Origin: Thermoanaerobaculales bacterium
GTDB lineage: Bacteria; Acidobacteriota; Thermoanaerobaculia; Thermoanaerobaculales; Sulfomarinibacteraceae
Length of the DNA: 64,000 bases
NCBI GenBank assembly: GCA_036351195.1
Contig: JAZBOQ010000126.1
Span: 8,059-72,058 of the forward strand
Direction of reading: 5' to 3'
Shown here: positions 1 through 16,781 of the stretch, in pieces
Position numbering within the stretch: the stretch's first letter is position 1
Layout: every line of letters begins with the position of its first letter
The notes under the pieces: generated by a model
What the model was told of the DNA's origin: nothing
Databases searched by the model: none
What the model saw: the letters and a program-made list of their open reading frames with translations, nothing else
Made by a program: the position numbers and the translations under genes

Positions 1-3000
1 GCCGGCGTCGATCTTCTCGGCGCGTTACCTCGACGACTCGACGGTCCGGTTGGAGCGTCGCTACGCCGACTACACGTTCCCGGCCTGGGTCCAGGGCGTC
101 GACTTCAGCGCCTTTTCGACCCCGGTCGCGACCGTTCCGGCGGGCGACCTCCCGGATCTGGTGACGGCCCCCGACGGTTACAGCCTGGCACCGGGCGAGA
201 GCTTGGTGGTGACCTTCCAGGTTGTGGTGGATGCCGATCTCGATCCGTCCGTGACAGAGATCGTCAACACCGCTTCGAGCTTGACCGACCAGAATCCGGT
301 TGCCACCAACGCAACGGTCACGGATCAGGTGATTCGCGCCGGTGTGCTGGTGACCCCAGGCAACGCAGGATTCGGCCCTGCCGGGAGCACGGTCACCTAC
401 AGTCACGAGGTCGTTAACAACGGTCCCGACGTCGACTCCTTCGAACTTACTCCCTACAGCGACCCCGGTCACCGGGTAGAACTCATCGACCCGGCCACGG
501 GAGCGGTCTTGGCGGTTGACGATGATGGAGACGGGCTGTGGGACGGAGGCACAGCGATCAACACCGGATCGATGGCCGTTGGTGAGTCGAAGGCCTACAA
601 CATCCGGGTGACGATTCCTCCGGGGACGACAGCGGGTAGTTCACTTTCCTCGGGTCTGACGGCCACTTCGGTTCGTGTGCCGACGGTTTCGTCGACGGCC
701 TACGACGAGACGCTGGTTGTGGACGACTTCGGGGAGGTCATCGTCACCCCCGACAACAGCGGAAGCATCGAAACGGTTCCGGGTACAGTTGTTTACCCAC
801 ACCACGTGATCAACAACACGGGGGTCGCCGACGTCTTCGATCTGAGCGTCTTCGACTCGCAGTCCGCTTCCGGGTGGTCCTCGACCATCCACTGGGACAC
901 CAACGGCGACGGTGTCTACACACCTGGAACGGATCTCGAGATCGCCAATACGGCGCAGCTGGACGATGGTGAGTCGCAGTTGATCTTCGTGGTGGTGACG
1001 GCCGATGGAGCTCAGGCGCCGGGTGATGTGAACGTCAGCAGTCTGGGGGCCGTTTCGCGGACCAATCCGACGGCCTGGCTCGACGGCGCCACCGACACCA
1101 CCACGGTTCAGGGCGGAACATTGGACTTCGACCTCACCGGCGGCGGCACCCGCCTGGTCGAACCGGGCGATACTGCCGTCTTCCCGGGACGCCTTCGAAA
1201 CCTCGGCGACGCCGCCGATACCTACGAGATGACCATCACACCGTCGCCGAACTTCGGCATCGACGGGTTTGACCACACCACTCAACTTGTCGTCGGTGGC
1301 GTGGTGGTTGCGGAGGATGAAGACGGCGACGGTAATTGGGACACCATCGACCCGGCCTACGGCGCCGGGCCCAACGGCGGTCCCATTCTCCCGGTCCCGG
1401 CGGGCGGGACCCTGTTGTACGACTTGGTGCGGCCGGTGGATGGGAATCAGCGGCCCTACCACGATCCGGTGACGCTGACCGCGCAGTCCCAGGCCTCAGG
1501 AGGCTGGGACAGCGTGACCGCCACCAACATCCTGCTCGCCGAGAGCCGGGCCGTATTGGCGGGCCTCGAGAGCTACTCGACGGGTGGGCGCGTCGTGGTT
1601 GAGTGGGTCACCACCGCCGAGATCGGAACGGTGGGCTTTGATCTGTACCGGCGTGCCGAAAGCGGTCCGAGCTTCATCAAGCTCAACCACCGGCTGCTGC
1701 AGGGCGTATTCGACGTTTCCCAGGGCGGCGTCTACCGATTCGTGGACGAAAAGGCATCCCCGGGCATGGACCTGGAGTACCTGCTCGTCGAGAGAGATGT
1801 CTGGGGAGACGAGGCGTCGTTCGGTCCCATCGCGACCACCGCGAAGGAGCTCGACGACGAGGACGAGCGACGATCCGCTGCCGTGTGGGACTCGGGTTAT
1901 GAAGCCGCGGCGCGTTCAGAGCGATTCAGAGAACCGGTGGAGATCGCCGGTGGACACGAGGCGTTGCCAGCCGACCGGATGAAGGTCGCCGTCGATCGTA
2001 TCGGTCTCGTCAGACTCGATGTCGACGATGTCGCTCAGGCTCTCGGTGTGGATGCCGGGAAGGCGGCCCACCTCATCGAGACCGGAGACTTCAGGATGAC
2101 CCTGGGCGGCGACGAGGTGGCCTGGATGCCCGAGGAGGGGGGCGGCGGCCTCTTCTTCTTCGGCGAGGCCAATGACAGCATCTACACCCGGGACAACGTC
2201 TACCTGCTCGAGGCAGTCGCCGGCTCGACCATGAACGCGACGGCCGGTGACCCCCAGAAGCCCCAGCCCGGTGGACTTTTCAACGAGTCGCTGCACGTGG
2301 AGCAGGAGCACTTCCCGGTGACCGCGGTGGTCACCGACCCGGAGGGCGACTTCTGGATGTGGGATCTGATGTACGTCGACAGCCCGGTCCCCGTGTCCAA
2401 GAGCTTCAACTTCCACGTTCCTGCGCCGGTCGCGGTGGAGAGCAGGGCGGCGATCACGGTTCACCTCCACGGAGCTCTGAACTCCGACGTTGCGTCCAAC
2501 CACCTGGCGCGAGTCCATCTCAACGGCCGGGAGCTCGGCACGGTGAGCTGGGAGGACCTCGACCCGGTCTCCGCGACCTTCCGGTTTCCGCAAGAGCTGC
2601 TCGTTGATGGGACCAACACCCTCGAGATCGATGCCGAGCTGGTTCCGGGAGTCGATGAGGATCTGATCCTTGTCGACGCCTTTGATGTGGTGTACAAGCG
2701 GGGGCTGGAAGCCGCCGCCGACCAGCTGCTGCTCAGCGGGCGCGGCGGCAGGGTAACGACCGTCACCGGTTTCACGGATCCCGAGATCATGGTCCTCGAC
2801 CTCACCGACCGCTTGCAGCCGTTCGTCCTCACCGGGACGACCATCGAGCGGCACGAGGGCGGCTTCAGTGTCACCTTCGTCCCGCCGGGCTCAGGTGAGA
2901 TTCTGGCGGTGGCCACCAGTTCGGCCGCTGGTCCGCACTGGATGACGCCGGACCAACCATCGGATCTGAGATCGGCGGCCAACGCGGCCGAGCACCTCGT

Positions 3001-4027
3001 CATCGCCGGGCCGGGGTTGGCCGACTCCGCCCAGGCCCTTGCCGATCATCGGACGGCCTACGGACTCCTCAGCCGGGTCGTGCGCATCGAGGACGTTTAC
3101 GACGAGTTCAACCACGGCATGGCAAGCCCCTGGGCGATTCGAGACTTCCTCCAGCTCGCCTGGACCACGTGGTCGGTGAGGCCGCGGTTCGTCGCGCTGG
3201 CGGGTGACGGGTCCCTGGACTACATCGACCGGCTCGGAGGGCACGAGAACCTGATCCCGGCGCCCCAGGTGAGCACGGAGCTCGGCCTCTTCGGTTCGGA
3301 CCAGCCGTTGGCGGACTTCGACGACGACGGCGACCCCGAGGTGGCTCTTGGTCGCCTTCCGGTGCATGATGCGGCCGAGCTGAGGACCATCATCGACAAG
3401 ATCATCGCGGCGGAGACCGCCGACCGGTGGTGGCGCTACACCACTCTTTGGGTTGCCGATGCGGCGGACGAAGGCGGCGAGTTCAGCGGCGATCTCGACG
3501 CCGTTCTCGATCTCCTCGGTCCGAGGTTCACGACCACCCGCATCGATCTGGATGTGACCGGGATCGGTCTTGGCCGCCAGCTGTTGAGCCAACGGTTCGA
3601 CCGCGGCGCGGCGCTCGTCGGTTTCCTCGGTCACGCCGGCATGGACCGGTTGGGTAACCACGGTGTGCTGACAACCGCGGACGTGGGGATGCTTGCCAAT
3701 GACGAGCGGATTCCCGTCGTGACCGCGTTCACCTGCGTCGCGGGTCGATTCGACTTGCCGCTTTACGACACCCTCGCCGAGACAATTCTCCTTCGTGAGG
3801 GTGGTGGTGCAGGGGCCGTTTTCGCACCCGTAGGCCTGACGATGAACGACGACACGGCCATGGTTGGGCAGCAGTTGGTTCGGGTGATCACCAAGAAGCC
3901 GGGCATTCGCATCGGCGATGCTACCCGCAGGGCCCTGTGGCGGTACGTGCGAACCGACGGCGCCGATCCCACGGTGGCCCGGCTCTTCGTCCTGCTCGGC
4001 GATCCGGCATTCGACCCGGGCTGGTAG
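1..4027 (+). CDS. Giant secreted DUF11-repeat protein with a C-terminal peptidase C25 (gingipain-like cysteine peptidase) domain; the 5' end runs off the window
   Basis: The frame is open from nt 2, with no stop before the track's TTG at 50, so the N-terminus is missing. The N-terminal half has repeated modules of the DUF11 / conserved-repeat-domain type (VTPGNAGFGPAGSTVTYSHEVVNNGPDVDSFEL; VTPDNSGSIETVPGTVVYPHHVINNTGVADVFDL; TGGGTRLVEPGDTAVFPGRLRNLGDAADTYEM). The C-terminal part has a C25-like His/Cys dyad context (FLGHAGMDRLG ... VVTAFTCVAGRFD). Stop TAG at 4025-4027. Confidence 0.7.
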   Translation, partial: PASIFSARYLDDSTVRLERRYADYTFPAWVQGVDFSAFSTPVATVPAGDLPDLVTAPDGYSLAPGESLVVTFQVVVDADLDPSVTEIVNTASSLTDQNPVATNATVTDQVIRAGVLVTPGNAGFGPAGSTVTYSHEVVNNGPDVDSFELTPYSDPGHRVELIDPATGAVLAVDDDGDGLWDGGTAINTGSMAVGESKAYNIRVTIPPGTTAGSSLSSGLTATSVRVPTVSSTAYDETLVVDDFGEVIVTPDNSGSIETVPGTVVYPHHVINNTGVADVFDLSVFDSQSASGWSSTIHWDTNGDGVYTPGTDLEIANTAQLDDGESQLIFVVVTADGAQAPGDVNVSSLGAVSRTNPTAWLDGATDTTTVQGGTLDFDLTGGGTRLVEPGDTAVFPGRLRNLGDAADTYEMTITPSPNFGIDGFDHTTQLVVGGVVVAEDEDGDGNWDTIDPAYGAGPNGGPILPVPAGGTLLYDLVRPVDGNQRPYHDPVTLTAQSQASGGWDSVTATNILLAESRAVLAGLESYSTGGRVVVEWVTTAEIGTVGFDLYRRAESGPSFIKLNHRLLQGVFDVSQGGVYRFVDEKASPGMDLEYLLVERDVWGDEASFGPIATTAKELDDEDERRSAAVWDSGYEAAARSERFREPVEIAGGHEALPADRMKVAVDRIGLVRLDVDDVAQALGVDAGKAAHLIETGDFRMTLGGDEVAWMPEEGGGGLFFFGEANDSIYTRDNVYLLEAVAGSTMNATAGDPQKPQPGGLFNESLHVEQEHFPVTAVVTDPEGDFWMWDLMYVDSPVPVSKSFNFHVPAPVAVESRAAITVHLHGALNSDVASNHLARVHLNGRELGTVSWEDLDPVSATFRFPQELLVDGTNTLEIDAELVPGVDEDLILVDAFDVVYKRGLEAAADQLLLSGRGGRVTTVTGFTDPEIMVLDLTDRLQPFVLTGTTIERHEGGFSVTFVPPGSGEILAVATSSAAGPHWMTPDQPSDLRSAANAAEHLVIAGPGLADSAQALADHRTAYGLLSRVVRIEDVYDEFNHGMASPWAIRDFLQLAWTTWSVRPRFVALAGDGSLDYIDRLGGHENLIPAPQVSTELGLFGSDQPLADFDDDGDPEVALGRLPVHDAAELRTIIDKIIAAETADRWWRYTTLWVADAADEGGEFSGDLDAVLDLLGPRFTTTRIDLDVTGIGLGRQLLSQRFDRGAALVGFLGHAGMDRLGNHGVLTTADVGMLANDERIPVVTAFTCVAGRFDLPLYDTLAETILLREGGGAGAVFAPVGLTMNDDTAMVGQQLVRVITKKPGIRIGDATRRALWRYVRTDGADPTVARLFVLLGDPAFDPGW

Positions 4028-4033
4028 GCGTCG

Positions 4034-5158
4034 GTGAATCAACCTGGCTGGATGAGTCGTTTCGGGGCCGAGGTCGCTCGGCGAAGGGTCCCCATTTCGG
4101 TGACCCTCGAGCTGACTCGGCGGTGCAACCTGCGATGCGTCCACTGCTATCTCGGGTCGCAGGAGGTGGTCCGCGAGTCGCGCGAGCAGGAGATGACGAC
4201 CGAGCAGATCTTGTCGGTCATCGACCAGGCGGTGGAGGCGGGGTGTTTGTACCTGCTCATCACCGGTGGTGATCCCATGATGCGGCGGGATTTTGCCGAG
4301 ATCTACCGGCACGCGAGACAGAGCGGTCTCGTGGTGACTGTCTTCGCCGACGGTGTGCTCGTCACCGACGCCGTTGTGGAGCTCTTCCGTGAGCTTCCGC
4401 CGCGGATGGTGGAGATCAGCCTCTATGGCGCCACCGCGGAGACCTACGAGACCGTAACGCGTGTCGAGGGCTCGTACGACAAGTGCCTGAGGGGCGTGCA
4501 CCGGCTGCTGGATGCGGGCATCGAGGTGGGTTTCAAGACGGTGCTTATGACCGTCAATCAGCACGAGCTCGAGGCCATGAGGACCCTGGCGGAGGATCTC
4601 GGCGTGGATTTCCGGATCGACGCCGCCATCTTCCCGTGCCTTTCCGACGGCAATCGGGATCCGCTCGCTCTCCGCGTGGCGCCTGCCGTCGGTGTCGACG
4701 GTGAACTCGCGGCGCCCGGCGCCGTGTCCAAGCTCCGGGAGTACGTGGAGAAGAGATCGGATATACCCGTATCCGACCGGCTCTACGGATGCGGGGCCGG
4801 GGTCACCGGGTTCTCGGTCGATCCCTACGGTTGGGCTTCGCCCTGCCTCATGGCCACACACGTGCGGGCAAACCTGTTGGAGCGTGGCCTGAACGAGGTG
4901 TGGAACGACGACTTGAAGATGGTGATGGACCGACCGGCGCCGGCGGGATATGCGTGCTCGAGCTGCGAGATGCGCGTCGCATGTATGGTCTGTCCCGCAT
5001 TCAATTATCTGGAGACCGGTTCAGAGGACGTGCCATCGGAGTACCTCTGCGCCGCAACTGCCATTCGGTGGAAGCGAATCAACGACGCGAACCCCGGTGG
5101 AGTGGACTGCGACATTCGTACGGCCACCGGAGAGATCTGGGAGGGTTCCACGGAATGA
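4034..5158 (+). CDS. Radical SAM / SPASM-domain peptide maturase
   Basis: Has the CxxxCxxC cluster motif (RRCNLRCVHCY) near the N-terminus. The C-terminal SPASM cysteines are CGAGVTGFSVDPYGWASPC (CX12GX4C) and CSSCEMRVACMVC (CX2CX5CX2C), plus a later Cys in EYLCAA. The GTG at 4034 lies 6 nt after the upstream stop; an alternative ATG is at 4052. Confidence 0.85.
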   Translation: MNQPGWMSRFGAEVARRRVPISVTLELTRRCNLRCVHCYLGSQEVVRESREQEMTTEQILSVIDQAVEAGCLYLLITGGDPMMRRDFAEIYRHARQSGLVVTVFADGVLVTDAVVELFRELPPRMVEISLYGATAETYETVTRVEGSYDKCLRGVHRLLDAGIEVGFKTVLMTVNQHELEAMRTLAEDLGVDFRIDAAIFPCLSDGNRDPLALRVAPAVGVDGELAAPGAVSKLREYVEKRSDIPVSDRLYGCGAGVTGFSVDPYGWASPCLMATHVRANLLERGLNEVWNDDLKMVMDRPAPAGYACSSCEMRVACMVCPAFNYLETGSEDVPSEYLCAATAIRWKRINDANPGGVDCDIRTATGEIWEGSTE

Positions 5159-5334
5159 GAAACCGTGTGAAGAAGAGCGAGAAGAAGAATCGACGCGAAT
5201 ATCGCCGGCCGGAGCTGAGATCCATCGACCTCGTTGCCGACGAGGTTCTTTCGGTCGGCTGCAAGTTGGCCAACAGCGGTGGACCGATTAGCAAGACCTG
5301 CAGCCTGTCGAGCTGTTCAGGCGTTGGGTCCTGA
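5155..5334 (+). CDS. Candidate RiPP precursor peptide (59 aa, 3 Cys, C-terminal Ser)
   Basis: Not listed separately in the track; it is hidden in the tail of ORF 4789..5334. The ATG at 5155-5157 overlaps the maturase stop TGA at 5156-5158 (ATGA). A GGGAGGG Shine-Dalgarno sits at 5139-5145. Sequence: MRNRVKKSEKKNRREYRRPELRSIDLVADEVLSVGCKLANSGGPISKTCSLSSCSGVGS. The N-half is basic and leader-like; the C-half is Cys/Ser/Gly-rich (Cys36, Cys49, Cys54). Confidence 0.6.
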   Translation: MRNRVKKSEKKNRREYRRPELRSIDLVADEVLSVGCKLANSGGPISKTCSLSSCSGVGS

Positions 5335-5360
5335 ACGAGTTGGGCCGAGGCCCCCTGGAA

Positions 5361-5654
5361 ATGAATACGCTCGAACCCCGGCCCGGAATCGTGGTTCGTC
5401 GGATCGCCGACGAGGTGTTGCTGGTCCCCACGACGGGCGAGTTGGCCGGGCTGCAGAAGATCTTCGTGCTCGACGAGGTGGGTTGTTTTATCTGGGAGCG
5501 GCTCGATGGTCGACGGAGCCTCGAGGAGATTTCCCGGCTCATCGCCGGGGAGTTCGCGGTCGAAGAGGACCGGGCGCACGCGGACGTTCTGGACTTCACT
5601 GGCGCACTGACCGATGCGGGTTTGGTCGTGTCGAGGGCGCCGGTTGACGATTGA
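5361..5654 (+). CDS. PqqD-family protein (stand-alone RiPP recognition element)
   Basis: 97 aa. IVVRRIADEVLLVPTTGELAGLQKIFVLDEVGCFIWERLDGRRSLEEISRLIAGEF...VLDFTGALTDAGLV is a typical PqqD/RRE pattern. The ATG at 5361 is 27 nt after the peptide stop; the track's TTG at 5340 is less likely. Confidence 0.75.
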   Translation: MNTLEPRPGIVVRRIADEVLLVPTTGELAGLQKIFVLDEVGCFIWERLDGRRSLEEISRLIAGEFAVEEDRAHADVLDFTGALTDAGLVVSRAPVDD

Positions 5655-5658
5655 AACG

Positions 5659-6579
5659 ATGGTGGACACGCTCGTTCAGCTCTCCATCGCCGACGTGACG
5701 TTGACGGCGGTGGGCGATTCCCGATCGGTGCACATCGAAAAGGACTCGGATTTCTACGCGGCCTTTCTCGGCGGGCGCGGCGATCCCGGCAACGCTGTAG
5801 AGTTCGTCTTCGAGCTGCAGACCGACAGGCCTCCAGAGCCTGGGGTGCTTCCGATGGTCTTCGACACCGGCGAAGCGTGGAAGGTCTACCGCGACGGACC
5901 GGATACGCTGATCGCCATGCCGGCTCCCAGAGGGGTCGACGGTCATCTCTGGGTGGTCCGTCTCAACCAGGAGAATCGACATCACCAGCTCTACGTTGGG
6001 CCGGCTCTGGTGCGCCATGAGGCGGGTCGGCGGGTGATCGAGAACCCGCTGCGCTATCCGCTCGATCAGATTCTGATGATGTACCTCATGGCGCAACACC
6101 GGTGCCTTATCCTGCACGCCGCGGGGATCTGCCGCGGGGGCCTCGGCGTACTATTCTCCGGCGTTTCCGGCGCGGGGAAGAGCACGCTCTCCGGCCTGCT
6201 CGAAGGGCTCGACGACACCGTGCACCTCAGCGACGACCGGGTCGTGGCCCGGAAGGTGCGAGACGGCATCCGTGTCTACGGCACACCGTGGCCCGGCGAG
6301 GCCATGGTTGCCGCCGACGAGAGCGCACCACTCGGCGCGGTCGTGCTCTTACGTCAGGCGGCTCACCACGAGCTCACGCGACTCGAACCGGTCGAGGCTC
6401 TCAAACGTCTGCTCCCGATGGCTTCCATCCTCTGGTACGACTCGGTCCGCGCCGATGCCGCTCTCGGCTGGTGCGACGAGCTCCTGCGGTCGGTGCGCGC
6501 CTACGAACTGGCTTTCGCCAGAGATGAGCGTGTCAGGGCCGTGGTCGAAGACCTCTTTGACGAGCTCTCGGCTTCCTGA
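5659..6579 (+). CDS. HPr kinase/phosphorylase C-terminal-domain-like P-loop protein (HprK-related)
   Basis: Has the P-loop GVSGAGKST followed by HLSDDRVV, matching the HprK pattern G.SG.GKS ... LV.DD.V. The ATG at 5659 is 5 nt after the PqqD stop (5652-5654). Confidence 0.65.
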   Translation: MVDTLVQLSIADVTLTAVGDSRSVHIEKDSDFYAAFLGGRGDPGNAVEFVFELQTDRPPEPGVLPMVFDTGEAWKVYRDGPDTLIAMPAPRGVDGHLWVVRLNQENRHHQLYVGPALVRHEAGRRVIENPLRYPLDQILMMYLMAQHRCLILHAAGICRGGLGVLFSGVSGAGKSTLSGLLEGLDDTVHLSDDRVVARKVRDGIRVYGTPWPGEAMVAADESAPLGAVVLLRQAAHHELTRLEPVEALKRLLPMASILWYDSVRADAALGWCDELLRSVRAYELAFARDERVRAVVEDLFDELSAS

Positions 6580-6621
6580 GGAGTAGTCATTGCCCTCTCG
6601 CCGTGGTTCAATGACCCCGAC

Positions 6622-8874
6622 ATGACCCACACCCACGACAGTCCGATCGACGCCGACACGATCCTCGCCTCCATCCGCCGCCGCGGGCGCGGGGGCATGA
6701 ACATGCAGATGCTGGTGGCGGAGACCGTCGACCGGTTGGGCATCGGCCGCTCGGAGGCGAGGCGGGTGCTGCGTCGGCCGCTTCGCGAGCTCCAACAGCG
6801 AGGCGCGATCGTTCTCGGACGCGGCAAGCGGTACTTCGTCACCGAGGTTTCGAATCTCCACCCCGGCCGCTATCGGCGGATGTCCGGCGGCGGGTTCGTG
6901 GTGGACCTGAACGCGGCGGACGGCGCTCCGGTGTGGATCCCGCCCAGCGGCCGGCGGGGCGCGCTGCACGGCGATGCGGTGCTTGTCCGCCTCGAATCGC
7001 CGCACAAACGAGCCCGGATGCTCGGTCTGCGGGAGGGCGTGGTGGTGCGCATCGTCGAGCGCCGGACCACCGAAGTGGTGGGGGTTTGGGACGAGGAGGG
7101 CGGCAGGAGCCAGGTTCGGCCGCTGGGTCGCGGGCAGAAGTTCACGGTGGAGGTGACGGCCTCGAAGGTGAAGGGCACGCCGCACGACGGCGAGCTCGTG
7201 GTTGTCACCGTGGACAACGTGGACTCCAAAGGCCGGCACGCCCGGGGTGTGCTGCTGGATCGCCTCGGCAAGCCCGAAGAGGCCGGTGCGGTGGATCGGG
7301 CGGTGCTGCGGCTGTTCGGTATCGACGAGGTCTTCAACCCGGAGGTGGAGGCAGAGGCAGACGCCCTTCCGGGAGAGATCGGCGCAGCCGAGCTGACCGG
7401 CCGTTGGGACCTTCGCGACCGGCCCGCCATCACCATCGACGGCCGCACCGCCCGCGATTTCGACGACGCGGTGAGCGCGCGGCGGGTGGGGAAGAACGAC
7501 ATCGAGGTCGAGGTCCACATCGCCGACGTGAGCCACTACGTGCGATCAGGAACGCTGCTCGACCGAGAGGCCCGCCGCCGGTCCACCAGCGTCTACCTGC
7601 CGGGGCTGTGCGTGCCCATGCTGCCGGAGCGGCTGTCCAACGACCTCTGCTCGCTGCGTGAGGGCGTGGATCGCCTGACCTTCAGCGTCCGCTTCCGGGT
7701 GGGGCCGGATGGGCGGGTCGGTGCGGCGAAGGCGAAGCGGTCGGTGATTCGCTCGCGGCGCCGGTGCACCTACCTGGAGGTCTTCGACTGGCTGCTGCGG
7801 CCCCGGGCCGAGTGGCCGCCGGAGACCGAGGGCTTCGCCGATTCGCTGGAGCTGCTCGCCGAGGCGGCGGAGCGGCTGGGTGCGGCGCGAAAGGTCAGGG
7901 GCAGCCTCGACTTCGACCTGGCCGAGCCGGTGCTGATCCTCGACCCCGAGGGCCGGGTGGAGTCCATCGCGCCGAGTGCCCGCAACCGGGCCCACCGGCT
8001 CATCGAGGAGCTCATGGTCACCGCCAACATCGCGGTGGCGAGGTTGATCGTGGCGGCGGATCAGCCGTGTCTGCACCGGGTGCACGACGAGCCCGATCCG
8101 GCCAAGATCGAAACCCTGGGCGAGGTGGTCAAGGAGCTCGGCCTGCGTCTCGACAGCGGTGGGGACGAGGTCTCGCCGAACGCCCTGCAGGCCCTGCTCG
8201 AGCAGGTGGAAGGCCGGCGGGAGGAACACATGGTGGCGATGCTGGTGCTGCGCTCCATGGCGCGGGCGGTCTACAGCCACGATCCGCGCGGCCACTATGC
8301 TCTGGCCACCGACGCCTACCTCCACTTCACCTCGCCCATCCGGCGCTACCCGGATCTGGTGACCCACCGCATGTTGGACCGGCTCCTGGATCGTGGGGCG
8401 TTGAAGGGCGAGGAGCGCGACGCCGCCGAGACGGAGCTCCGCGCCCTCGGACCGGCGTGCTCGGCCCTCGAGCAGGAGGCGGAAAAGGCCGAACGGACAG
8501 CGGTGCAGTGGAAGACGGCGCTCTTTCTGCGCGATCGGGTGGGGGAGGTCTTCACCGGCCGAATCTCGGGGGTGGTGGCGTTCGGTTTCTTTGTCGAGCT
8601 CGATGATGTCTTCGCCGACGCTCTGGTCCACATCAAGGACCTGCTCGACGATTACTACGAGTTCGACGAGGCCCGCCACCGCCTGGTGGGGGAGCGGACC
8701 GGTCGAAGGTGGCGGCTCGGCGACAAGCTCGAGGTGCGGCTGACCCGGGTGGACATGGACAGCTTCCAGATTCAGGTCGTGCCGGTGGGGATCAAGCCCG
8801 ACCGGCGGGCCATGCAGGGCAAGGACCGCCGGTCGAAGACCCGCCGTCGTCCCGGCCGCCGCTCCCGAAGGTAG
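6622..8874 (+). CDS. rnr: Ribonuclease R (RNB family 3'-5' exoribonuclease with S1 domain and basic tail)
   Basis: 750 aa. Has an RNB catalytic region (ITIDGRTARDFDDAV ... HIADVSHYV ... YLHFTSPIRRYPDL), a C-terminal S1-like region (GRISGVVAFGFFVEL) and a Lys/Arg-rich tail. Confidence 0.9.
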   Translation: MTHTHDSPIDADTILASIRRRGRGGMNMQMLVAETVDRLGIGRSEARRVLRRPLRELQQRGAIVLGRGKRYFVTEVSNLHPGRYRRMSGGGFVVDLNAADGAPVWIPPSGRRGALHGDAVLVRLESPHKRARMLGLREGVVVRIVERRTTEVVGVWDEEGGRSQVRPLGRGQKFTVEVTASKVKGTPHDGELVVVTVDNVDSKGRHARGVLLDRLGKPEEAGAVDRAVLRLFGIDEVFNPEVEAEADALPGEIGAAELTGRWDLRDRPAITIDGRTARDFDDAVSARRVGKNDIEVEVHIADVSHYVRSGTLLDREARRRSTSVYLPGLCVPMLPERLSNDLCSLREGVDRLTFSVRFRVGPDGRVGAAKAKRSVIRSRRRCTYLEVFDWLLRPRAEWPPETEGFADSLELLAEAAERLGAARKVRGSLDFDLAEPVLILDPEGRVESIAPSARNRAHRLIEELMVTANIAVARLIVAADQPCLHRVHDEPDPAKIETLGEVVKELGLRLDSGGDEVSPNALQALLEQVEGRREEHMVAMLVLRSMARAVYSHDPRGHYALATDAYLHFTSPIRRYPDLVTHRMLDRLLDRGALKGEERDAAETELRALGPACSALEQEAEKAERTAVQWKTALFLRDRVGEVFTGRISGVVAFGFFVELDDVFADALVHIKDLLDDYYEFDEARHRLVGERTGRRWRLGDKLEVRLTRVDMDSFQIQVVPVGIKPDRRAMQGKDRRSKTRRRPGRRSRR

Positions 8875-8899
8875 GCGCTCGGCTTCTGGGCGCGATCCC

Positions 8900-8916
8900 G
8901 CGGGCGGGACGCCCGC
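8900..8916. repeat. REP-like hairpin GCGGGCGGGACGCCCGC (family also at 15077-15095 and 15116-15134)
   Basis: Perfect 7-bp stem with a 3-nt loop, 26 nt after the rnr stop. The same 17-19-mer recurs twice inside the 3' end of CDS 14142..15239. Confidence 0.7.
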
Positions 8917-9073
8917 ACCACAATAGGTGTCGGCTCGAGAAGTGGGTTGTGGTGCGCGCGTCTCGCGCGCAGGATCACTTTGAATTTGGGAATACCTGTA
9001 TGCACCAGAAGAGAATGCACTGCGATGACTCGGCGCGTCCGACGCGCCGCCACAATTCGTTCGACGAATTGTC

Positions 9074-9123
9074 TTGACAAACCGCCTCGGCACTCTCATA
9101 TTCTAAACTACAAAACGATCGTT
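9074..9123 (+). promoter_or_regulatory. Candidate sigma70-type promoter plus palindromic operator upstream of the TetR gene
   Basis: TTGACA at 9074-9079, a 17-nt spacer, then CATATT at 9097-9102. A perfect 10-bp palindrome AACGATCGTT lies at 9114-9123 between the -10 and the SD (GGGAGG, 9134-9139), in an unusually AT-rich stretch. Confidence 0.35.
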
Positions 9124-9148
9124 CGGTTTTTCTAGGGAGGCCCCCAGC

Positions 9149-9814
9149 TTGCCGAGAGGTGCCCAAGCCGCCAGGTCCGAGGTCGCCACCGCCAAGGTGC
9201 TCGATGCGGCCCTGCACCTCTTTTCCAGCCAGGGTTACGGTGCCACCTCCATGCGCCAGATCGCCGAGGCCTGCGATCAGTCGGTGGGCAACCTCTACCA
9301 CCACTTCGGATCCAAAGAGGCGATCTACAAGAAGCTCATCGACGGCTACCTGCTGCAGTTCCTCCAGGCGGACCACCCCCTGCAGAAGGTCTTTGTCGCC
9401 GCGCGTTTTCCCGACGATCTCGAGGACCTCGCGGCGGCCATCGAGCTCACCGTGGAGCGGAACAAGGCGTCGATCATGCTCGTCTTCATCGACGTCATCG
9501 AGTTCGGGGGACGGCACATCCGCTGGTTCTACGAAACCATGGCCGATCGATTCAAGGCCATGTACGGCGAACGCTTCGAGGAGCTCGATCGCCAGGGGCG
9601 GCTCACCGACGCCGATCCCATGGTGGCGGTGATGGTGGCCACCCGGTGGCTCTTCTACTTCTACACGGTGGAGAAATGTTTCGGCGTGCCCATGCACTTC
9701 GGCATGGACGCCCAACAAGCGGTTGACGGATTTATCCGCATTCTGAGAAACGGGCTGCTGCGCGGTGACGAAACGGCGCAGGAGCCGAATCCCGATAAAG
9801 GGGGGAGATCATGA
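9149..9814 (+). CDS. TetR/AcrR-family transcriptional regulator
   Basis: Has an N-terminal HTH (VLDAALHLFSSQGYGATSMRQIAEACDQSVGNLYHHFGSKEAIY). TTG start 8 nt after the SD. The stop overlaps the next gene's ATG (ATGA at 9811-9814). Confidence 0.85.
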   Translation: MPRGAQAARSEVATAKVLDAALHLFSSQGYGATSMRQIAEACDQSVGNLYHHFGSKEAIYKKLIDGYLLQFLQADHPLQKVFVAARFPDDLEDLAAAIELTVERNKASIMLVFIDVIEFGGRHIRWFYETMADRFKAMYGERFEELDRQGRLTDADPMVAVMVATRWLFYFYTVEKCFGVPMHFGMDAQQAVDGFIRILRNGLLRGDETAQEPNPDKGGRS

Positions 9815-12099
9815 GCGATTGGAAACGACTGTTGATGGTACTGGCGATCCTGCTGGTGCTGGTGGTGGATCTGACGCCGCCGGCGATGGCGCAGGAAGCC
9901 ACCGAGGAAGCCCCGGCGGAAGCTGCGGCCGAAGAAGAGACGGCAGCCGAGGAACCTCAAGGGAGGTTCATCGAAGAGATCGTGGTGACCTCCCGGCGTC
10001 GGGAAGAGAATCTGCAGGAGGTCCCGATCGCGGTCTCGGTGATCGCCTCGGACCAGCTCGAGGACATCGCGGCGACGTCGATCGCCGAGCTGCAGGCCTA
10101 CGTGCCTAACCTGTCCATCTACCAGGGCCGCAACCAGTCGACGACGCTGACCGCGTTCGTCCGCGGCGTCGGCCAGGCGGATCCGCTGTGGGGCGTCGAC
10201 CCGGGCGTCGGGCTCTACATCGACGATGTGTACATCGCCCGCGCCCAGGGCGCGCTATTGGATGTCTACGACGTGGCGCGGGTCGAGGTGCTGCGCGGCC
10301 CCCAGGGAACCCTCTACGGCAAGAACACCATCGGCGGCGCGGTGAAGTACGTGACCAAGGAAATGACCGACGACCCCGAGGGGCGGATCACCTGGAACAT
10401 GGGGTCCTTCAATACCCAGGAGGTCCGCGCCAACTTCGCCGGCCCCTTGATCAAGGGCAAGCTTCGAGGCAAGGCATCGGCGGCGTGGCTCACCCGTGAC
10501 GGCTACGGCGACAACCTCTACCAGAACCGCGAGGTGTCGAACAAGGACACCATGGCGTGGCGGCTGGGTCTCGACTGGCTGCCCACCGACAATCTCAGCT
10601 TCACCCTGAACTACGACCACACCGAGGACGACGCGGAGCCCATCGGCCTGACCCGCCTCGAGCCGAACCCGTACTGCGCGCTCTTCGGCGGCGCGCCGTG
10701 CGTGCCGTTTGACGACCTTTTCGACACCGAGAGCGGCATCGACCCGGTCAACGAGACCGACGCGACGGGGTACTCGTTGGGGGTGGAGTGGGACATCAAC
10801 GACGCGTGGACCTTCAAGTCCATCACCGCCTACCGCGAGACCGACTCCCGCAACTGGATCGACTTCGACACCTCGCCGTTGGCGATCGCCGACTCCCAGG
10901 CGACCTACTACGACGACCAGACCACCCAGGAGTTTCAGCTGCTCTACACAGGTTCGGACCGGTGGGGCGGCGTCTTCGGGCTGTACTACTTCGACGGGAC
11001 CGCCGGCGGCATCGTCAATGCGATGTTCTACACGAACTTCCCGAACACCACCGAGGGCTACGTCGACACCACCTCGTACGCCTTCTACGCCGATGCCAGC
11101 GTCAAGCTCACCGACCGGCTCTCCCTCAACCTGGGAATCCGGCCGACCCGTGAGGAGAAGCACGGTGTCGCCTTCAATGTCTACAACACCGACGACACCT
11201 TCACCGACTACTACTTCGTGGCGGCGGACTTCGACGACGAGACGACCTTCACCTCGTGGGCGCCCAAGATCGGCCTCGACTATCAGTTCAACCCGGACGT
11301 CATGGGCTACATCAAGGTCAATCAGGGCTTCAAGAGCGGCGGCTACAACGTCCGCGCCCAGTCGACCCTGTTCCCCGAGACCGCAGAGCCTTTCGACGAC
11401 GAGGTCATGACGGTCGGGGAGGTCGGCTTCAAGTCGGTGCTCGCCAACCGCAGCCTGGTGCTCAACGGCGCCCTCTTCTACGGCGACTACTCCGACATCC
11501 AGGTCTCCACCTTCACCTCGTACGACTCGGACGGCGACGGGGTCGACGACGCCTTCTTCGGCAACTTCCTGAATGCCGGCGACGCGACCATCAAGGGCGC
11601 CGAGCTCGAGTGGAATTGGGCGTCGCAGTCCTTCTTCGGGCTGTCGGGCTTCCTCGCCTACCTCGACACCGATCCGGATTACCTCGACGAGAACGGCGAT
11701 GGCTTCCTCGACGCCCAGGTGATCACCAATGCTCCCGAGTTCACCGGGACGCTCCGCGCCAACTTCGACTGGCCCCTGGCCGGCGGCCTGCTCACCGCCA
11801 GCGTCGGCTACGCCTATCGCGACGAGTCGATGCTGACCAACGAAGGCGGCGCCGACCCGCGCGACCCCTCCGGCGAAACACCGCTCGAGCCGCTCATTCA
11901 GGACTCGTACGGTTTGCTCGACGCGTGGGTGGCCTGGCTGTCGCCGCAGGCGAAGTGGCGCATCGGGATCACCGGTAAGAACCTCACCGACGAGGAGTAC
12001 CTGCTCAGCGGCTACAACCTGCCGGTGCTGGGCTCGATCCAGGGCTCGTACGGACCGCCGCTGACCGTCATCGGGACCATCGAGTACCGTTTCTGGTAG
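9811..12099 (+). CDS. TonB-dependent outer-membrane receptor
   Basis: Has a signal peptide (…PPAMAQEA), a plug region (IEEIVVTSRRREENLQEVPIAVSVI … VEVLRGPQGTLYGKNTIGG), a long beta-barrel region, and a terminal aromatic residue (…IEYRFW). Confidence 0.85.
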   Translation: MSDWKRLLMVLAILLVLVVDLTPPAMAQEATEEAPAEAAAEEETAAEEPQGRFIEEIVVTSRRREENLQEVPIAVSVIASDQLEDIAATSIAELQAYVPNLSIYQGRNQSTTLTAFVRGVGQADPLWGVDPGVGLYIDDVYIARAQGALLDVYDVARVEVLRGPQGTLYGKNTIGGAVKYVTKEMTDDPEGRITWNMGSFNTQEVRANFAGPLIKGKLRGKASAAWLTRDGYGDNLYQNREVSNKDTMAWRLGLDWLPTDNLSFTLNYDHTEDDAEPIGLTRLEPNPYCALFGGAPCVPFDDLFDTESGIDPVNETDATGYSLGVEWDINDAWTFKSITAYRETDSRNWIDFDTSPLAIADSQATYYDDQTTQEFQLLYTGSDRWGGVFGLYYFDGTAGGIVNAMFYTNFPNTTEGYVDTTSYAFYADASVKLTDRLSLNLGIRPTREEKHGVAFNVYNTDDTFTDYYFVAADFDDETTFTSWAPKIGLDYQFNPDVMGYIKVNQGFKSGGYNVRAQSTLFPETAEPFDDEVMTVGEVGFKSVLANRSLVLNGALFYGDYSDIQVSTFTSYDSDGDGVDDAFFGNFLNAGDATIKGAELEWNWASQSFFGLSGFLAYLDTDPDYLDENGDGFLDAQVITNAPEFTGTLRANFDWPLAGGLLTASVGYAYRDESMLTNEGGADPRDPSGETPLEPLIQDSYGLLDAWVAWLSPQAKWRIGITGKNLTDEEYLLSGYNLPVLGSIQGSYGPPLTVIGTIEYRFW

Positions 12100-12110
12100 A
12101 CGATTTCAAC

Positions 12111-12145
12111 GGGGTGCGCCGCTGAGGCGGCGCACCCCCTTTTAC
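12111..12145 (+). terminator. Rho-independent terminator after the TonB receptor gene
   Basis: A 12-bp GC stem, GGGGTGCGCCGC (12111-12122) / GCGGCGCACCCC (12127-12138), with loop TGAG, followed by CTTTTAC. Confidence 0.6.
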
Positions 12146-12159
12146 AACAGGGAGCAGCA

Positions 12160-12927
12160 ATGATCGAAACAGGACTGAAGGGGAAAGTTGTCATCGTGAC
12201 CGGCGCCGCCGCCGGCATCGGCCGCGGCACCGCCGAGGCGTTCGCGGGGGAAGGCTGCCGGGTGGCGGCCTGGGACGTCAGCGACGCCGATGAGATCGCC
12301 GCCGCCGACGGCGGTGAGGTGGTGTATCAGAAGGTGGACGTCACCGACGTCGACGCGGTCGCCGCGGCGGTCGCCGAGGTGGTCGAGCGTTGGGGCGGCA
12401 TCGACGTGCTGGTCAACAACGCCGGCATCGTCCGCGACGCCCAGCTCGTCAAGTATAAAAACGGCGAGGTGGTCGCCACCATGAGCGACGCCCAGTGGGA
12501 CGCCGTCATCGGGGTCAACCTCAAGGGAGTTTTCAATTGCACCCGCGCTGTGGTCCCGCACCTCATCGCGGGGGGCGGCGGAACGATCCTCAACGCGTCG
12601 TCGGTGGCGTGTCTGGACGGCAACTTCGGCCAGACCAACTACGTCGCCACCAAGTCCGGGGTCATCGGCATGGCCAAGACCTGGGCCCGCGAGCTTGGAA
12701 AGTTCGGTATCCGCGTCAACGCGGTGGCCCCCGGCTTCGTCGCCACCGAGATCATCAGCGCCATGCCGCAGAAGGTCCTGGACGGCATGGTCGCCCACAC
12801 CCCGCTGGGCCGGATCGGTGACGTCAAGGACATCGCCAACGCCTACGTCTGGCTGGCGTCGGATGCGGCGAGCTGGATCACCGGAACGACGCTGTCGGTG
12901 GATGGTGGTCTCGTCATTGGCACATAG
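12160..12927 (+). CDS. Short-chain dehydrogenase/reductase, 3-oxoacyl-ACP reductase (FabG)-like
   Basis: Has VVIVTGAAAGIGRG (Rossmann TGxxxGxG), NNAG, and the catalytic S...YxxxK (SSVACL…NYVATK). Confidence 0.85.
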   Translation: MIETGLKGKVVIVTGAAAGIGRGTAEAFAGEGCRVAAWDVSDADEIAAADGGEVVYQKVDVTDVDAVAAAVAEVVERWGGIDVLVNNAGIVRDAQLVKYKNGEVVATMSDAQWDAVIGVNLKGVFNCTRAVVPHLIAGGGGTILNASSVACLDGNFGQTNYVATKSGVIGMAKTWARELGKFGIRVNAVAPGFVATEIISAMPQKVLDGMVAHTPLGRIGDVKDIANAYVWLASDAASWITGTTLSVDGGLVIGT

Positions 12928-13092
12928 TAATTATGAGTTATGAGTTATGAGTTATGAGTTATGAATGTTATCGCACCGAGAAACGTGTCGATGGATGAGG
13001 GTTTTGAGTCTAATTTATTGACTCCAAATTACCGTGAATATGACAGTTCGAGGTTCGATGTTCGGAATTCATCATTCATCATTCATAATTCG
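12928..13092. repeat. AT-rich periodic-arm hairpin element (left arm (GTTATGA)n, right arm (TCATCAT)-type)
   Basis: Starts the nucleotide after the SDR stop. The left arm, 12928-12975, is TAATTATGA(GTTATGA)x3...GTTATCGCA. The right arm, 13065-13092, is GAATTCATCATTCATCATTCATAATTCG. The reverse complement of the right arm matches the left arm at about 18/22 positions. About 30 percent GC in a GC-rich genome. Confidence 0.7.
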
Positions 13093-13123
13093 ACTTGGCC
13101 CTGCGCGAAAGTAGGGAGGAACA

Positions 13124-14116
13124 ATGGAACGTTTTGCAACGATTAGATCGACGGGAAGGTACATCCCGGAGATCGAAGTTTCCAATGACGAACTGCGCGA
13201 GCGGTTCGCGCACATCCCCGACTTCGTTGACAAGATGGAGGCGTCGTCGGCGATCACGACCCGATGGAGGGCGCCGGACGACTGGTGCACCTCGGACATC
13301 GCCCTGCCGGCGGCTCGGCAGGCCCTCGAACGGGCGGGCCGCCTGCCGAAAGAGGTGGACCTGGTCATCCTCGGTACCGACTCGCCGGACTACGTGACTC
13401 CGGCCACGTCGGTGGTGCTGCAACACAAGCTCGGCGCCCACAACGCGGGGACCTTCGACGTGGGTTGCGCGTGTGCATCCTTCCCCACCGGCGCCGCCAT
13501 CGCGGCGGGGATGATCGCAACCAACCCGGCTTTGAAGACGGTGCTCGTCATCGGCGTCTACAACATGCAGAAGCTGGCGGACCCCAACGATCCCATGGTC
13601 TTCTTCTACGGCGACGGTGCGGGGGCGGCGGTCATCGAACCTGCCGACGAGCCCGGTTTCGTGTCCTCGGCCATGCGGGCCGACGGTGCCTACAACCGCC
13701 ACTGGGGACTGTACTCCGGCGGCACCTTCGAGCCGGCGAACGAGGAGGCGGTCCGCGAGGGGCGCACGAAGGTGAAGATGCTCGAGCGCTACCCGCCGGA
13801 GGTCAATCACGAGGGCTGGCCCAAGGTGGTGCGCTCCATGGCCGCTAACGGCTCGTTCCAGGTTTCGGACATCGACTTCGCCATCTTCACCCAGGTTCGC
13901 CGGCCGTCCATCGAGCTGGTGATGGAGGATGTCGGCCTGCCCATGAGCAAGACCCACACGGTCATGGAGAAGTGGGGCTACACGGGTTCGGCGTGCGTGC
14001 CCATCGCCCTGGACGATGCTCTCGAGCAGGGGAAGATCGCCTCGGGCGATCTCGTCGCCCTGGTCGGATCCGGGGTAGGGTATAACCAGGCAGGGGCCAC
14101 GTTCCGAATGCCGTGA
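13124..14116 (+). CDS. KAS III (FabH)-like thiolase-fold protein with a degenerate catalytic triad
   Basis: Aligns end to end with E. coli FabH (sequence recalled from memory). The Cys is retained (FDVGCACASF vs FDVAAACAGF), but the His position is Thr (IFTQVR vs VPHQAN) and the Asn position is Tyr (WGYTGSACVP vs HGNTSAASVP). SD GGGAGGA at 13114-13120. Confidence 0.8.
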   Translation: MERFATIRSTGRYIPEIEVSNDELRERFAHIPDFVDKMEASSAITTRWRAPDDWCTSDIALPAARQALERAGRLPKEVDLVILGTDSPDYVTPATSVVLQHKLGAHNAGTFDVGCACASFPTGAAIAAGMIATNPALKTVLVIGVYNMQKLADPNDPMVFFYGDGAGAAVIEPADEPGFVSSAMRADGAYNRHWGLYSGGTFEPANEEAVREGRTKVKMLERYPPEVNHEGWPKVVRSMAANGSFQVSDIDFAIFTQVRRPSIELVMEDVGLPMSKTHTVMEKWGYTGSACVPIALDDALEQGKIASGDLVALVGSGVGYNQAGATFRMP

Positions 14117-14141
14117 TTTCCAGGAAAGCCGGGGGCGTTTC

Positions 14142-15239
14142 GTGGGCAACAAGATCGTGAAAGTGATTTTCTTCTTCCTGGTCGTCGCTGCCGTGCTGAT
14201 CGTGGTCGCGTGCTGGATGATCTGGAAGCGGCCGCTGACCGTGGACGCCCGCATGAGCAGGATGGCGCTCAAGATCAACGGGCTCACCGAGCGTACGCTG
14301 GCCACCGACAGTGGCGAGATGACGTGCTGGGTGGGAGGCCAGGGACCCACCGCGGTTCTGCTCCACGGTGCCGGCGATCAGGCGGGGGCGTGGGCGCGAA
14401 CCGTCGGCGACCTGGAAACCGGGTACCGGCTGGTCATCCCCGACATGCCCGGCCACTGGAAGAGCGACCCCCGGAAGGGCCCGATCCACCTCGATGACCT
14501 GTTGGACGGGCTGAACCGGGTGATGGACGAGCTCGGGGGGAACGAGCCGGTGATCGTGGTCGGCAACTCCATGGGCGCGTGGCTCGGCTTCCTCTACGCC
14601 ATCGATCATCCGGAACGGGTGGACCGCCTGGTGGCGGTCAACGGCGGGCCGCTGTTCAACCCCGATCCGCAGGTCAACATCTTTCCCACCACCCGCGACG
14701 AGGCCCGCGAGACGATGAAGGGTCTCATGGGTCCGACCAGCCCGACGATCCCAGGTCATGTCCTGGACGACATCGTCCGCCGGGCGCCCACCGGGCCGGC
14801 GGCGCGCTTCGCGTCCACCGCCGGCGAGATGGGAGCCTACCTGCTCGACGGGAGGCTCGACGAGGTGGCGGTCCCGGTGGAGCTGGTGTGGGGCGATGCC
14901 GATCAACTGCTGACGGTGGCCTACGCCGAGCGCATTCTCGAGGGCTTACCGCGCGGACGTCTGCACCTGGTCGAGGGCTGTGGCCACGTGCCGCAACGGG
15001 AGTGTCCGCTGCGCTTTCTCGAGGTGTTGAAGGAGGCGCTGGAGACGGAGCCTGCATTGCCGAATCCGGAGGAGAGTGCGGGCGAGACGCCCGCAACCAC
15101 AAAGGCGAAGGAAAGTGCGGGCGGGACGCCCGCACCCACGACCGCGCGGTTGGGCCTCGTCGACTCGGGCGATGATTGTGGCCGCGGGCGCCCCGCCCGC
15201 GATACGACGCGGGTGGATCCCAACGGGGAGTTGACATGA
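14142..15239 (+). CDS. Membrane-anchored alpha/beta-fold hydrolase with a REP-derived C-terminal tail
   Basis: Has an N-terminal TM helix (IFFFLVVAAVLIVVACWMIW), an HG oxyanion motif (LLHGAGD), a GNSMG nucleophile elbow, and a C-terminal GHVP. The last roughly 60 codons run through two REP hairpins. The stop overlaps the next ATG (ATGA at 15236-15239). Confidence 0.75.
   Translation: MGNKIVKVIFFFLVVAAVLIVVACWMIWKRPLTVDARMSRMALKINGLTERTLATDSGEMTCWVGGQGPTAVLLHGAGDQAGAWARTVGDLETGYRLVIPDMPGHWKSDPRKGPIHLDDLLDGLNRVMDELGGNEPVIVVGNSMGAWLGFLYAIDHPERVDRLVAVNGGPLFNPDPQVNIFPTTRDEARETMKGLMGPTSPTIPGHVLDDIVRRAPTGPAARFASTAGEMGAYLLDGRLDEVAVPVELVWGDADQLLTVAYAERILEGLPRGRLHLVEGCGHVPQRECPLRFLEVLKEALETEPALPNPEESAGETPATTKAKESAGGTPAPTTARLGLVDSGDDCGRGRPARDTTRVDPNGELT
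15077..15134. repeat. Two direct copies of the GCGGGCG(A/G)GACGCCCGC REP hairpin inside the 3' end of a CDS
   Basis: 15077-15095 is TGCGGGCGAGACGCCCGCA and 15116-15134 is TGCGGGCGGGACGCCCGCA. They are translated as ...ESAGETPATT...ESAGGTPAPT. Confidence 0.75.
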
Positions 15240-16774: not shown

Positions 16775-16781
16775 ATCAATC

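Follow-up and report, generated by a model that had tools for sequence, protein, structure and literature searches.

The locus and its small open reading frame

Near the left end of the window (the whole stretch of 64,000 nt analysed here, from contig JAZBOQ010000126.1 of a Thermoanaerobaculales bacterium) five consecutive plus-strand genes encode a giant surface protein with a C25 cysteine-peptidase domain, a radical S-adenosylmethionine (rSAM) enzyme with a SPASM domain, a peptide of 59 residues, a PqqD-family protein and an ScmC-family kinase-like protein (Table 1). The subject of this study is the small open reading frame (ORF) in the middle of this group (translation MRNRVKKSEKKNRREYRRPELRSIDLVADEVLSVGCKLANSGGPISKTCSLSSCSGVGS*), which a first-pass annotation had put forward as a peptide precursor, translated in coupling with the maturase gene and made up of a leader-like half and a core with Cys. 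Reading of the sequence bore out its basic description: the TGA of the rSAM gene shares an ATGA with the ATG of the small ORF, a GGGAGGG run lies 9 nt upstream, and the product carries cysteines at positions 36, 49 and 54. Furthermore, GAGG-type purine runs occupy the equivalent position in four relatives (L001, L002, L003 and L010; the loci compared are designated by L numbers). The spacing across the C25, rSAM, peptide, PqqD and kinase genes is 6, -4, 26 and 4 nt. In the scan of positions 3500-7000 the frequency of promoter- and terminator-like sites did not exceed that of shuffled sequence, which gives no sign of internal promoters or terminators, and Rfam returned no match in the same interval. 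By its layout, this set of five genes appears operon-like.

Public records leave the start codon of the peptide ambiguous, as the near-identical 55-residue product held at NCBI (hypothetical protein V2I67_09515, from a Thermoanaerobaculales metagenome-assembled genome, MAG) is annotated from the GTG of Val5 (window position 5167). We favour the ATG at 5155 as the probable start, since it is preceded by the Shine-Dalgarno-like run and the N-terminus of the homologue in L001 aligns with it (MKVRVK vs MRNRVK). The G+C content by codon position (0.49/0.51/0.73) displays a third-position periodicity that agrees with this frame. Many A- or T-ending codons had been taken at first for a composition atypical of the genome, a view that found no significant support: the third-position G+C (GC3) of 0.73, as compared to 0.79-0.81 in the adjacent genes, lies within the local range (11% of the 59-codon windows within those genes are as low), and a codon bias left by horizontal transfer was rejected. 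The lower overall G+C of the ORF is accounted for by its Lys/Arg/Asn/Ser-rich composition.

Table 1. Position of the peptide gene, its parts and its neighbours within the window
Feature	Position	Strand	Remarks
Giant surface-protein gene (3' part), PorU-like C25 cysteine-peptidase domain at its end	1-4027	+	Runs off the left window edge
Radical SAM/SPASM putative peptide maturase (ScmE-like)	4034-5158	+	Pfam Radical_SAM at 8e-26, plus SPASM
Shine-Dalgarno-like GGGAGGG	5139-5145	+	9 nt before the ATG; read in the sequence
Putative precursor peptide gene	5155-5334	+	59 aa plus stop; ATG overlaps the rSAM stop (ATGA)
N-terminal segment, residues 1-15	5155-5199	+	Lys/Arg-rich; length and sequence vary across the family (K/R/E/P-rich)
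Probable recognition (leader) motif, residues 16-37 (YRRPELRSIDLVADEVLSVGCK)	5200-5265	+	Spacing invariant across the family
Tail (putative core), residues 38-59 (LANSGGPISKTCSLSSCSGVGS)	5266-5331	+	Hypervariable, Gly/Ser/Ala/Pro-rich; two-Cys type C-x4-C-x3-G-S; ends in Ser
PqqD-family protein, putative RiPP recognition element (peptide chaperone)	5361-5654	+	PF05402 at E 2.8e-16
ScmC-family P-loop kinase-like protein (predicted HprK/PEPCK fold), 306 aa	5659-6579	+	Start mapped to ATG 5659

Conservation and extent of the peptide family

A scan for relatives of the maturase (one genome per species) returned 13 cassette-type relatives at 35-61% identity, distributed among Acidobacteriota, Kiritimatiellae, Victivallales, Verrucomicrobia/PVC (Planctomycetes-Verrucomicrobia-Chlamydiae), Anaerolineaceae and other lineages, and in each of those with downstream sequence a related small ORF of 54-64 codons is situated directly 3' of the maturase gene. 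In the full set of informative loci, drawn from Acidobacteriota, PVC group, Desulfobacterota-like, Gammaproteobacteria and Chloroflexi MAGs, the homologous maturase is adjoined by a single related small ORF in about 20 out of about 20, and the cassette is spread over no fewer than five bacterial phyla. Conservation of the ORF beside related maturases had been singled out in the first-pass annotation as the test on which its proposal could fail, and it was found at every informative locus. A hidden Markov model of the family likewise detects a single copy per locus, and no further copy in the window. Codon changes are overwhelmingly silent, with 21 synonymous and 4 non-synonymous between L002 and L003 (44 codons) and 25 and 3, respectively, between L003 and L010; the peptide gene is under purifying selection. 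The genes as called in L033, L034 and L036 again show the 4-nt start/stop overlap between rSAM and peptide. L036 also holds (7805-7966) a variant member with a junction one residue shorter (G-V-C-K) and a G-H-S end, within a complete C25-PqqD-rSAM-peptide-ScmC-S24 cassette. In L010 (4016-5051) the match to the maturase is split in two, and the parts, which share 4560-4564, lie in different reading frames; the MAG may contain a frameshift or an error of assembly here.

A profile search enlarged the family to 192 members in 90%-identity clusters and 729 in 50%-identity clusters, each of approximately 50-80 aa. Two matches, P0300 and P0338, are false positives of the profile (repeat proteins). 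No member found by this search is named beyond 'hypothetical protein' and none bears a Pfam domain; the family is without a curated Pfam or NCBIfam model, and full-text literature searches found no paper on the peptide or its cassette.

This lack of any Pfam or NCBIfam match, together with the many spurious ORFs that the high G+C of the genome generates here on both strands, could be read as the signature of a chance open frame that is never translated. Such a reading has to contend with conservation across phyla that includes an invariant motif, with the strong synonymous excess, with in-frame GC3 periodicity, a Shine-Dalgarno-like run and a start-stop overlap, and with the fact that gene callers from several sources predict the homologues. 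As the small ORF is conserved beside maturases and displays both synonymous excess and GC3 periodicity, we consider it a real coding gene; the chance-frame explanation, whose probability we regard as vanishingly small, is effectively refuted by the maturase-linked conservation, the synonymous excess and the occurrence of one copy per locus.

Anatomy of the peptide

The family is held together by the segment that follows the variable N-terminus, the consensus of which is Y-x-K-P-x-[LIV]-x-R-[VI]-[DE]-L-x-x-x-E-[VT]-L-x-x-G-C-K (the third position being K or R). The frame Y..P-x15-[small]-C-[K] was found with identical spacing in 121/121 members, and subsequently in 252/253 of a larger set of short matches. 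Y, P, L, E, C and K are invariant in alignment A3; in the window the motif starts as Y16-R-R-P-E-L21, where Y and P are invariant and the sixth position is occupied by L, I or V in 119/121. A lipoprotein lipobox at the G-C pair was considered and rejected, as the preceding D-L-V-A-D-E-V-L-S-V contains conserved Asp and Glu and no hydrophobic h-region.

Behind the motif, the tails (16-31 aa, rich in Gly, Ser, Ala, Pro and Thr) are hypervariable apart from one or two cysteines. One-Cys forms read C-[VT]-[GD]-P... or C-D-D-P..., and two-Cys tails, the window peptide included, are usually C-x4-C-x3-G-S: among the 28 of this type in the first 121 sequences the spacing is x4 in 20, and 5 residues follow the last Cys in 22. 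Over the family the first tail Cys comes 5-8 or 11-18 residues after the Lys, and 5-17 residues lie past the last Cys. The C-terminal residue is Ser in 237/252 and Thr in 10/252 (247/252 = 98%), usually as G-S, and the C-terminal Ser is the only hydroxyl residue conserved across the family and its distant variants. A conserved front followed by a variable, Cys-containing back is the leader/core layout typical of precursors of peptides that are made by the ribosome and modified after translation (RiPPs). The earlier proposal of a maturase-coupled precursor with a leader-like half and a Cys core is thus backed by a rigid motif and a variable Cys tail.

Partner proteins

The rSAM enzyme has a complete set of rSAM/SPASM cysteines, with CX3CX2C (residues 31-38) and seven of the SPASM type (253, 271, 308, 311, 317, 320 and 339). 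Its best full-length NCBIfam alignments are with ScmE, StsB, PqqE and PapB, all far under the cut-offs, and its N-terminal half is most similar to the heme-b synthase AhbD, MftC, NirJ and PqqE.

The best PDB match of the PqqD-family protein is the lasso-peptide RiPP recognition element (RRE) TbiB1 (5v1u/5v1v; E 5e-5, residues 7-89). The first-pass annotation had drawn attention to the pentapeptide ADEVL, shared by the peptide and PqqD (RRIADEVLLV), and to a possible pairing of the two strands. The sharing itself is real, and any 5-mer is shared with PqqD by only 0.7% of shuffled peptides, but the identity is specific to this locus and the pairing found no support: at other loci leader and PqqD have in common only an alternating acidic/hydrophobic pattern (AEEVL vs ADETL; ADEVL vs AGETI). 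The strand motif I-x-[DEG]-E-x-x-L-V is moreover general in the PqqD family (TbiB1 has IDDEVVLL). We treat the likeness as a probable resemblance between strand-type sequences, and not as evidence of pairing.

The nearness of the rSAM N-terminal half to MftC and PqqE, and the presence of a PqqD partner, raise the question of whether the peptide could give rise to a small redox cofactor or metabolite in the manner of PqqA or MftA, with only Cys36-Lys37, the tail Cys and the C-terminal Gly-Ser entering the product. The few invariant residues within an otherwise variable tail and the lack of transport or immunity genes would be consistent with this, and MftA is likewise modified at its C-terminus. 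The scores, however, fall far under the MftC and PqqE cut-offs, the variable spacing of the invariant residues is hard to square with one defined small product, and no cofactor-dependent dehydrogenases are linked to the cassette, whose linked genes are peptidases, a kinase and surface or extracellular-polysaccharide (EPS) genes. On balance, we find a cofactor precursor very improbable.

The kinase-like protein is 100% identical to database entry P0121, which carries PF27840 (ScmC) in its precomputed Pfam annotation, as do nearly all of its 120 listed homologues; NCBIfam gives weak matches to the HprK-related kinases B/A and to ScmC. An AlphaFold2 model built on 44 homologues (pLDDT 95.5) retrieved PEPCK (2e-7) and HprK/P (1e-4 to 1e-3) in Foldseek, and the 44 sequences conserve a Walker A motif SGAGKST (S170, G173, K174 and T176 invariant), D192 and R194 (DDR), and GTPWPG. 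On the strength of the model, the protein is confidently predicted to have an HprK/PEPCK fold with an intact P-loop.

In the giant protein upstream, Pfam places Peptidase_C25 (E 1.4e-59) at residues 983-1321 of the listed ORF. No stop interrupts its frame as far back as base 2; the TTG start at position 50 is therefore an artefact and the gene is cut by the window edge. The C-terminal ~600 residues align with the NCBIfam model of PorU, the sortase of the type IX secretion system (T9SS), at E 9e-55 and 186 bits (cut-off 420). The C25 homologues in related loci measure 1,500-4,300 aa, and several of the largest contain CLIPPER and SdrD_B repeats.

Composition of the cassette across lineages

Pfam-annotated gene lists, combined with tblastn and HMM matrices for 23 loci, revealed a recurrent set composed of the C25 giant protein, PqqD, rSAM/SPASM, the peptide and the ScmC-family protein, with only one rSAM gene per cassette, in the window as in every related locus. 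The C25 gene adjoins the cassette in 17 loci and, among those with enough flank, is missing only in L031 and L032. An S24/S26-like serine peptidase (150-170 aa, with a G-x-S-M-x-P motif) was present in 14/23 loci (L004-L006, L008, L009 and L029-L037; e.g. L029:11115-11630, L031:11554-12000 and, on the minus strand, L034:2090-2602) and in 6 more metagenome loci, and is missing from the closest Acidobacteriota relatives (L001-L003 and L010). The gene content supports the view that the cassette functions in the manner of an rSAM/SPASM RiPP pathway whose RRE is a separate protein and which has, apparently, unusual peptidase partners. The YxKPxL motif, the invariant C-terminal Ser, and the membership of the kinase and the C25 peptidase in the cassette are diagnostic features that the first-pass annotation had overlooked.

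When the ScmC alignment was used to seed a search of metagenomes, the cassette was recovered anew, together with more distant ScmC-linked variants, the peptides of which keep [YW]-x-K-P-x-[IV], an A-C-G-K junction, the tail Cys and the C-terminal Ser. These distant loci comprise L050:10984-11172, L051, L052, L057, L054:6700-7182, L055:5148-5321, L058:2805-2957 and L048:9773-10015, and their divergent peptides (...PYTKPSV.SEPIYETLALACGK...C...RRS; ...VWQKPRIKSGRLFESNSLACGK...C...KMS; KKPYVKPAIKSEKVFETAALACGKC...KFS) are all Ser-ended, which suggests that a wider superfamily may exist. A group of loci from Selenomonas, Propionispira and relatives (L013-L028), most with two adjacent rSAM/SPASM genes approximately 24% identical to the window maturase (e.g. 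L015:2942-4978), had no detectable PqqD, ScmC or family peptide and looks like a different system. Beyond the cassette, positions 6622-22328 of the window encode an RNase R, a TetR regulator, a TonB-dependent receptor, an SDR, a KAS III, two alpha/beta hydrolases, an acyl-CoA synthetase, a thiolase, a chorismate mutase/prephenate dehydrogenase and an aminotransferase, none with an evident link to the cassette.

Several features of the locus recall lasso or double-glycine bacteriocins: YxxPxL, the lasso-B1-like PqqD and the HPr-kinase-like gene occur together in phosphorylated lasso clusters, and ...EVLSVG superficially resembles the end of a GG-type leader (the first-pass annotation had compared it with GG/GA-type ends). 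The ORF might accordingly be taken for a precursor of that kind lying merely beside an unrelated rSAM gene. Against this, approximately 20 cassettes contain no lasso cyclase (asparagine-synthetase-like), no B2 protease (transglutaminase-type) and no conserved C39 peptidase or ABC exporter, no Glu or Asp occupies a fixed ring position, and the NCBIfam lasso and bacteriocin precursor models remain without a match. Moreover, the junction is an invariant G-C-K instead of GG or GA, which disposes of the earlier leader-end comparison, and the rSAM gene is the constant, often overlapping, neighbour of the peptide. We judge a lasso or double-glycine precursor extremely improbable.

In the PVC type and some other lineages the cassette borders on genes for FecR-like, BBP2 porin, Poly_export (Wza-like), GNVR/Wzc-like and Wzy_C proteins (L033:9624-16186; L034:2666-9278; the downstream parts of L004, L006 and L008; L031:1-5509). 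L031 and L032 both have neighbours of this kind, and an NTP_transf_5 nucleotidyltransferase is located next to the cassette in L031 (11975-13105, minus strand) and in L032. These neighbours bear on the possibility that the peptide is a cell-surface adaptor or anchor and not a free product: modified and C-terminally phosphorylated (possibly phospho-glycosylated), it would be used by the PorU-like C25 protein, as a transpeptidase of the sortase type, to tether its own giant adhesin-like protein or a polysaccharide, with the conserved Lys or a new N-terminus as acceptor amine. Consistent with such a role are the resemblance to PorU over ~600 residues in a protein that borders the cassette in most loci, the repeat-rich (CLIPPER, SdrD_B), surface-type character of the C25 proteins of 2,200-4,300 aa in relatives, the contact of several lineages' cassettes with the polysaccharide-export genes, the lack of exporter or immunity genes, and the nucleotidyltransferase of L031/L032, since its pseudomycoidin counterpart glycosylates phospho-Ser (PMC8498205). 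On the other hand, these arguments are all drawn from genomic context, the hypervariable tail resembles a diversifying bioactive core more than a structural linker, EPS genes were not found near the window cassette or its Acidobacteriota relatives, L031 and L032 have no C25 gene, and the similarity to PorU stays under the curated cut-off. To our knowledge, no such peptide anchor has been described, and we know of no T9SS in the carrier phyla. We therefore hold an anchoring function to be distinctly improbable.

Proposed maturation of the peptide

Taken together, the above observations lead us to read the small ORF as the ribosomal precursor (substrate) peptide of a five-gene maturation cassette, with the steps set out below, at a probability of roughly 0.8. 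The peptide gene is conserved, selected and linked to rSAM, PqqD and ScmC genes, and its product has a leader/core layout; that it plays the part of a precursor, whichever steps follow, is very likely. The ATGA overlap would couple translation of the peptide to that of the rSAM gene. The PqqD protein, as a lasso-B1-like RRE, would bind the YxKPxL...EE[VT]L segment and present the peptide to the maturase. We consider this binding of the leader probable, as the PqqD protein is most like lasso B1, the peptide has Y16-x-x-P19-x-L21, and lasso leaders carry YxxPxL (at -17 to -12; PMC10368454).

The SPASM rSAM enzyme would then modify the tail at, or with, the conserved Cys, for which a Cys-to-carbon thioether of the sactipeptide/ranthipeptide type, the most frequent precedent, is the likeliest chemistry; by analogy with those classes we propose thioether cross-links in the tail tentatively, at somewhat less than even odds. 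The kinase of HprK/PEPCK fold may phosphorylate the C-terminal Ser59 of the linear peptide. This site is preferred because Ser59 is the only conserved hydroxyl, an HprK-fold P-loop protein co-occurs with it, and lasso kinases offer a precedent (the HPr-kinase homologues of lasso clusters transfer phosphate to the linear precursor's C-terminal Ser; PMC8498205); we give the reaction an even chance. Removal of the leader would take place near the invariant G35-C36-K37 junction. The candidate enzyme in most lineages is the S24/S26-like peptidase (with small residues at -3/-1, S/A-x-G|C), and in the window the adjacent C25 cysteine peptidase, which could cut after Lys37. The S/A-x-G pattern at -3/-1 fits the specificity of an S26-type peptidase, and Lys37 would fit that of a gingipain-like C25 enzyme; the assignment of these particular proteases and sites is nevertheless doubtful.

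A number of observations weigh against this reading. Binding by the RRE, tail modification, phosphorylation and cleavage all rest on analogy, and the chemistry is not transferable from a characterised equivalog, since all NCBIfam maturase and SCM (SynChlorMet) models are far below cut-off. Among 114 family members no convincing match to the NCBIfam lasso, sactipeptide or other precursor models was obtained. BsfA was still phosphorylated after replacement of its Y, P and L by Ala, and the residue that BsfK modifies is a ring Ser instead of the C-terminal one (PMC10368454), so that the lasso analogy does not fix the site of phosphorylation. A junction that served for cleavage and nothing else would hardly be expected to hold an invariant Cys-Lys. 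The 64-kb window contains no S24/S26-like peptidase, and the cassette includes no conserved exporter or immunity gene, which would be unusual for an antibiotic RiPP.

As RiPP pathways are found via their precursors, a large precursor family that has neither a name nor a curated model is of some consequence. If the kinase acts as proposed, phosphorylation of the C-terminal Ser would be a tailoring module common to lasso and radical-SAM peptides; if the C25 link is functional, it would give gingipain/PorU-type enzymes a new role; and, were the anchoring alternative to prove true, these bacteria, which are not known to have type IX secretion, would possess a RiPP-based system for surface anchoring.

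Comparison with known systems

The system resembles the phosphorylated lasso peptides (paeninodin PadeK, ThcoK, SyanK, BsfK and pseudomycoidin PsmK), with which it has in common a YxxPxL leader, a stand-alone PqqD-type RRE, an HPr-kinase fold and a Ser-ended precursor. The pseudomycoidin kinase and nucleotidyltransferase pair phospho-glycosylates a lasso peptide, and the NTP_transf_5 gene of L031/L032 recalls that pair. The core maturase, however, is here an rSAM/SPASM enzyme (neither cyclase nor B2 is found in the annotated cassettes or the window), the Tyr lies 20 residues before the presumed junction as compared to 17 in lasso leaders, and the tail contains Cys and no conserved ring-forming Asp or Glu. 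The likeness is one of motifs only, the NCBIfam lasso precursor models having no match.

With sactipeptide and ranthipeptide systems (AlbA, SkfB, StsB and PapB/SCIFF-type) the cassette shares a SPASM domain with the full set of auxiliary-cluster cysteines and a short precursor whose core has cysteines as its only conserved side chains. It differs in the scores of its rSAM enzyme (bits against cut-off: AlbA 61.8/850, SkfB 73.4/300, StsB 102.7/625, PapB 56.7/340), in having only 2-3 Cys and a separate PqqD RRE, and in the kinase and C25 protein, neither of which is known from those classes. A small peptide, a PqqD-type chaperone and an rSAM/SPASM enzyme also make up the triad of pyrroloquinoline quinone (PQQ) and mycofactocin biosynthesis (PqqA/D/E, MftA/B/C), from which the cassette is set apart by its scores (MftC 117.6/265 and PqqE 91.2/381 bits), by a tail without GVY or E-x3-Y, and by its variable core, unfixed spacing, and accessory kinase and peptidases. 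In comparison to PorU, the C25 protein is without the C-terminal third and is fused to huge CLIPPER/SdrD_B repeat regions. Full-text literature searches yielded no precedent for a C25 partner in RiPP biosynthesis, and none is known to us.

Another near neighbour is SCM (ScmC TIGR04249, ScmD TIGR04248, ScmE TIGR04250 and ScmF TIGR04251), in which the same three protein types stand side by side: the best NCBIfam match of the window PqqD is ScmD, the best full-length match of the rSAM enzyme is ScmE, and the kinase belongs to PF27840. The equivalog cut-offs are not reached (ScmC 17.3 vs 125, ScmD 37.3 vs 100 and ScmE 104.7 vs 400 bits), a single rSAM gene replaces the ScmE and ScmF pair, and C25 and S24-like peptidases are added; the cassette is a relative of the SCM equivalogs and not a member. 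We know of no precursor identified for SCM in the TIGRFAMs text. The lasso-style leader with its RRE, the SPASM rSAM enzyme, the HPr-kinase fold with a C-terminal Ser and the PorU-like C25 protein form a combination of parts not seen together in any characterised class. With the peptide described here the ScmC/PqqD/rSAM type of cassette gains a concrete substrate, and the family may supply the missing precursor type for SynChlorMet-like (ScmC) cassettes.

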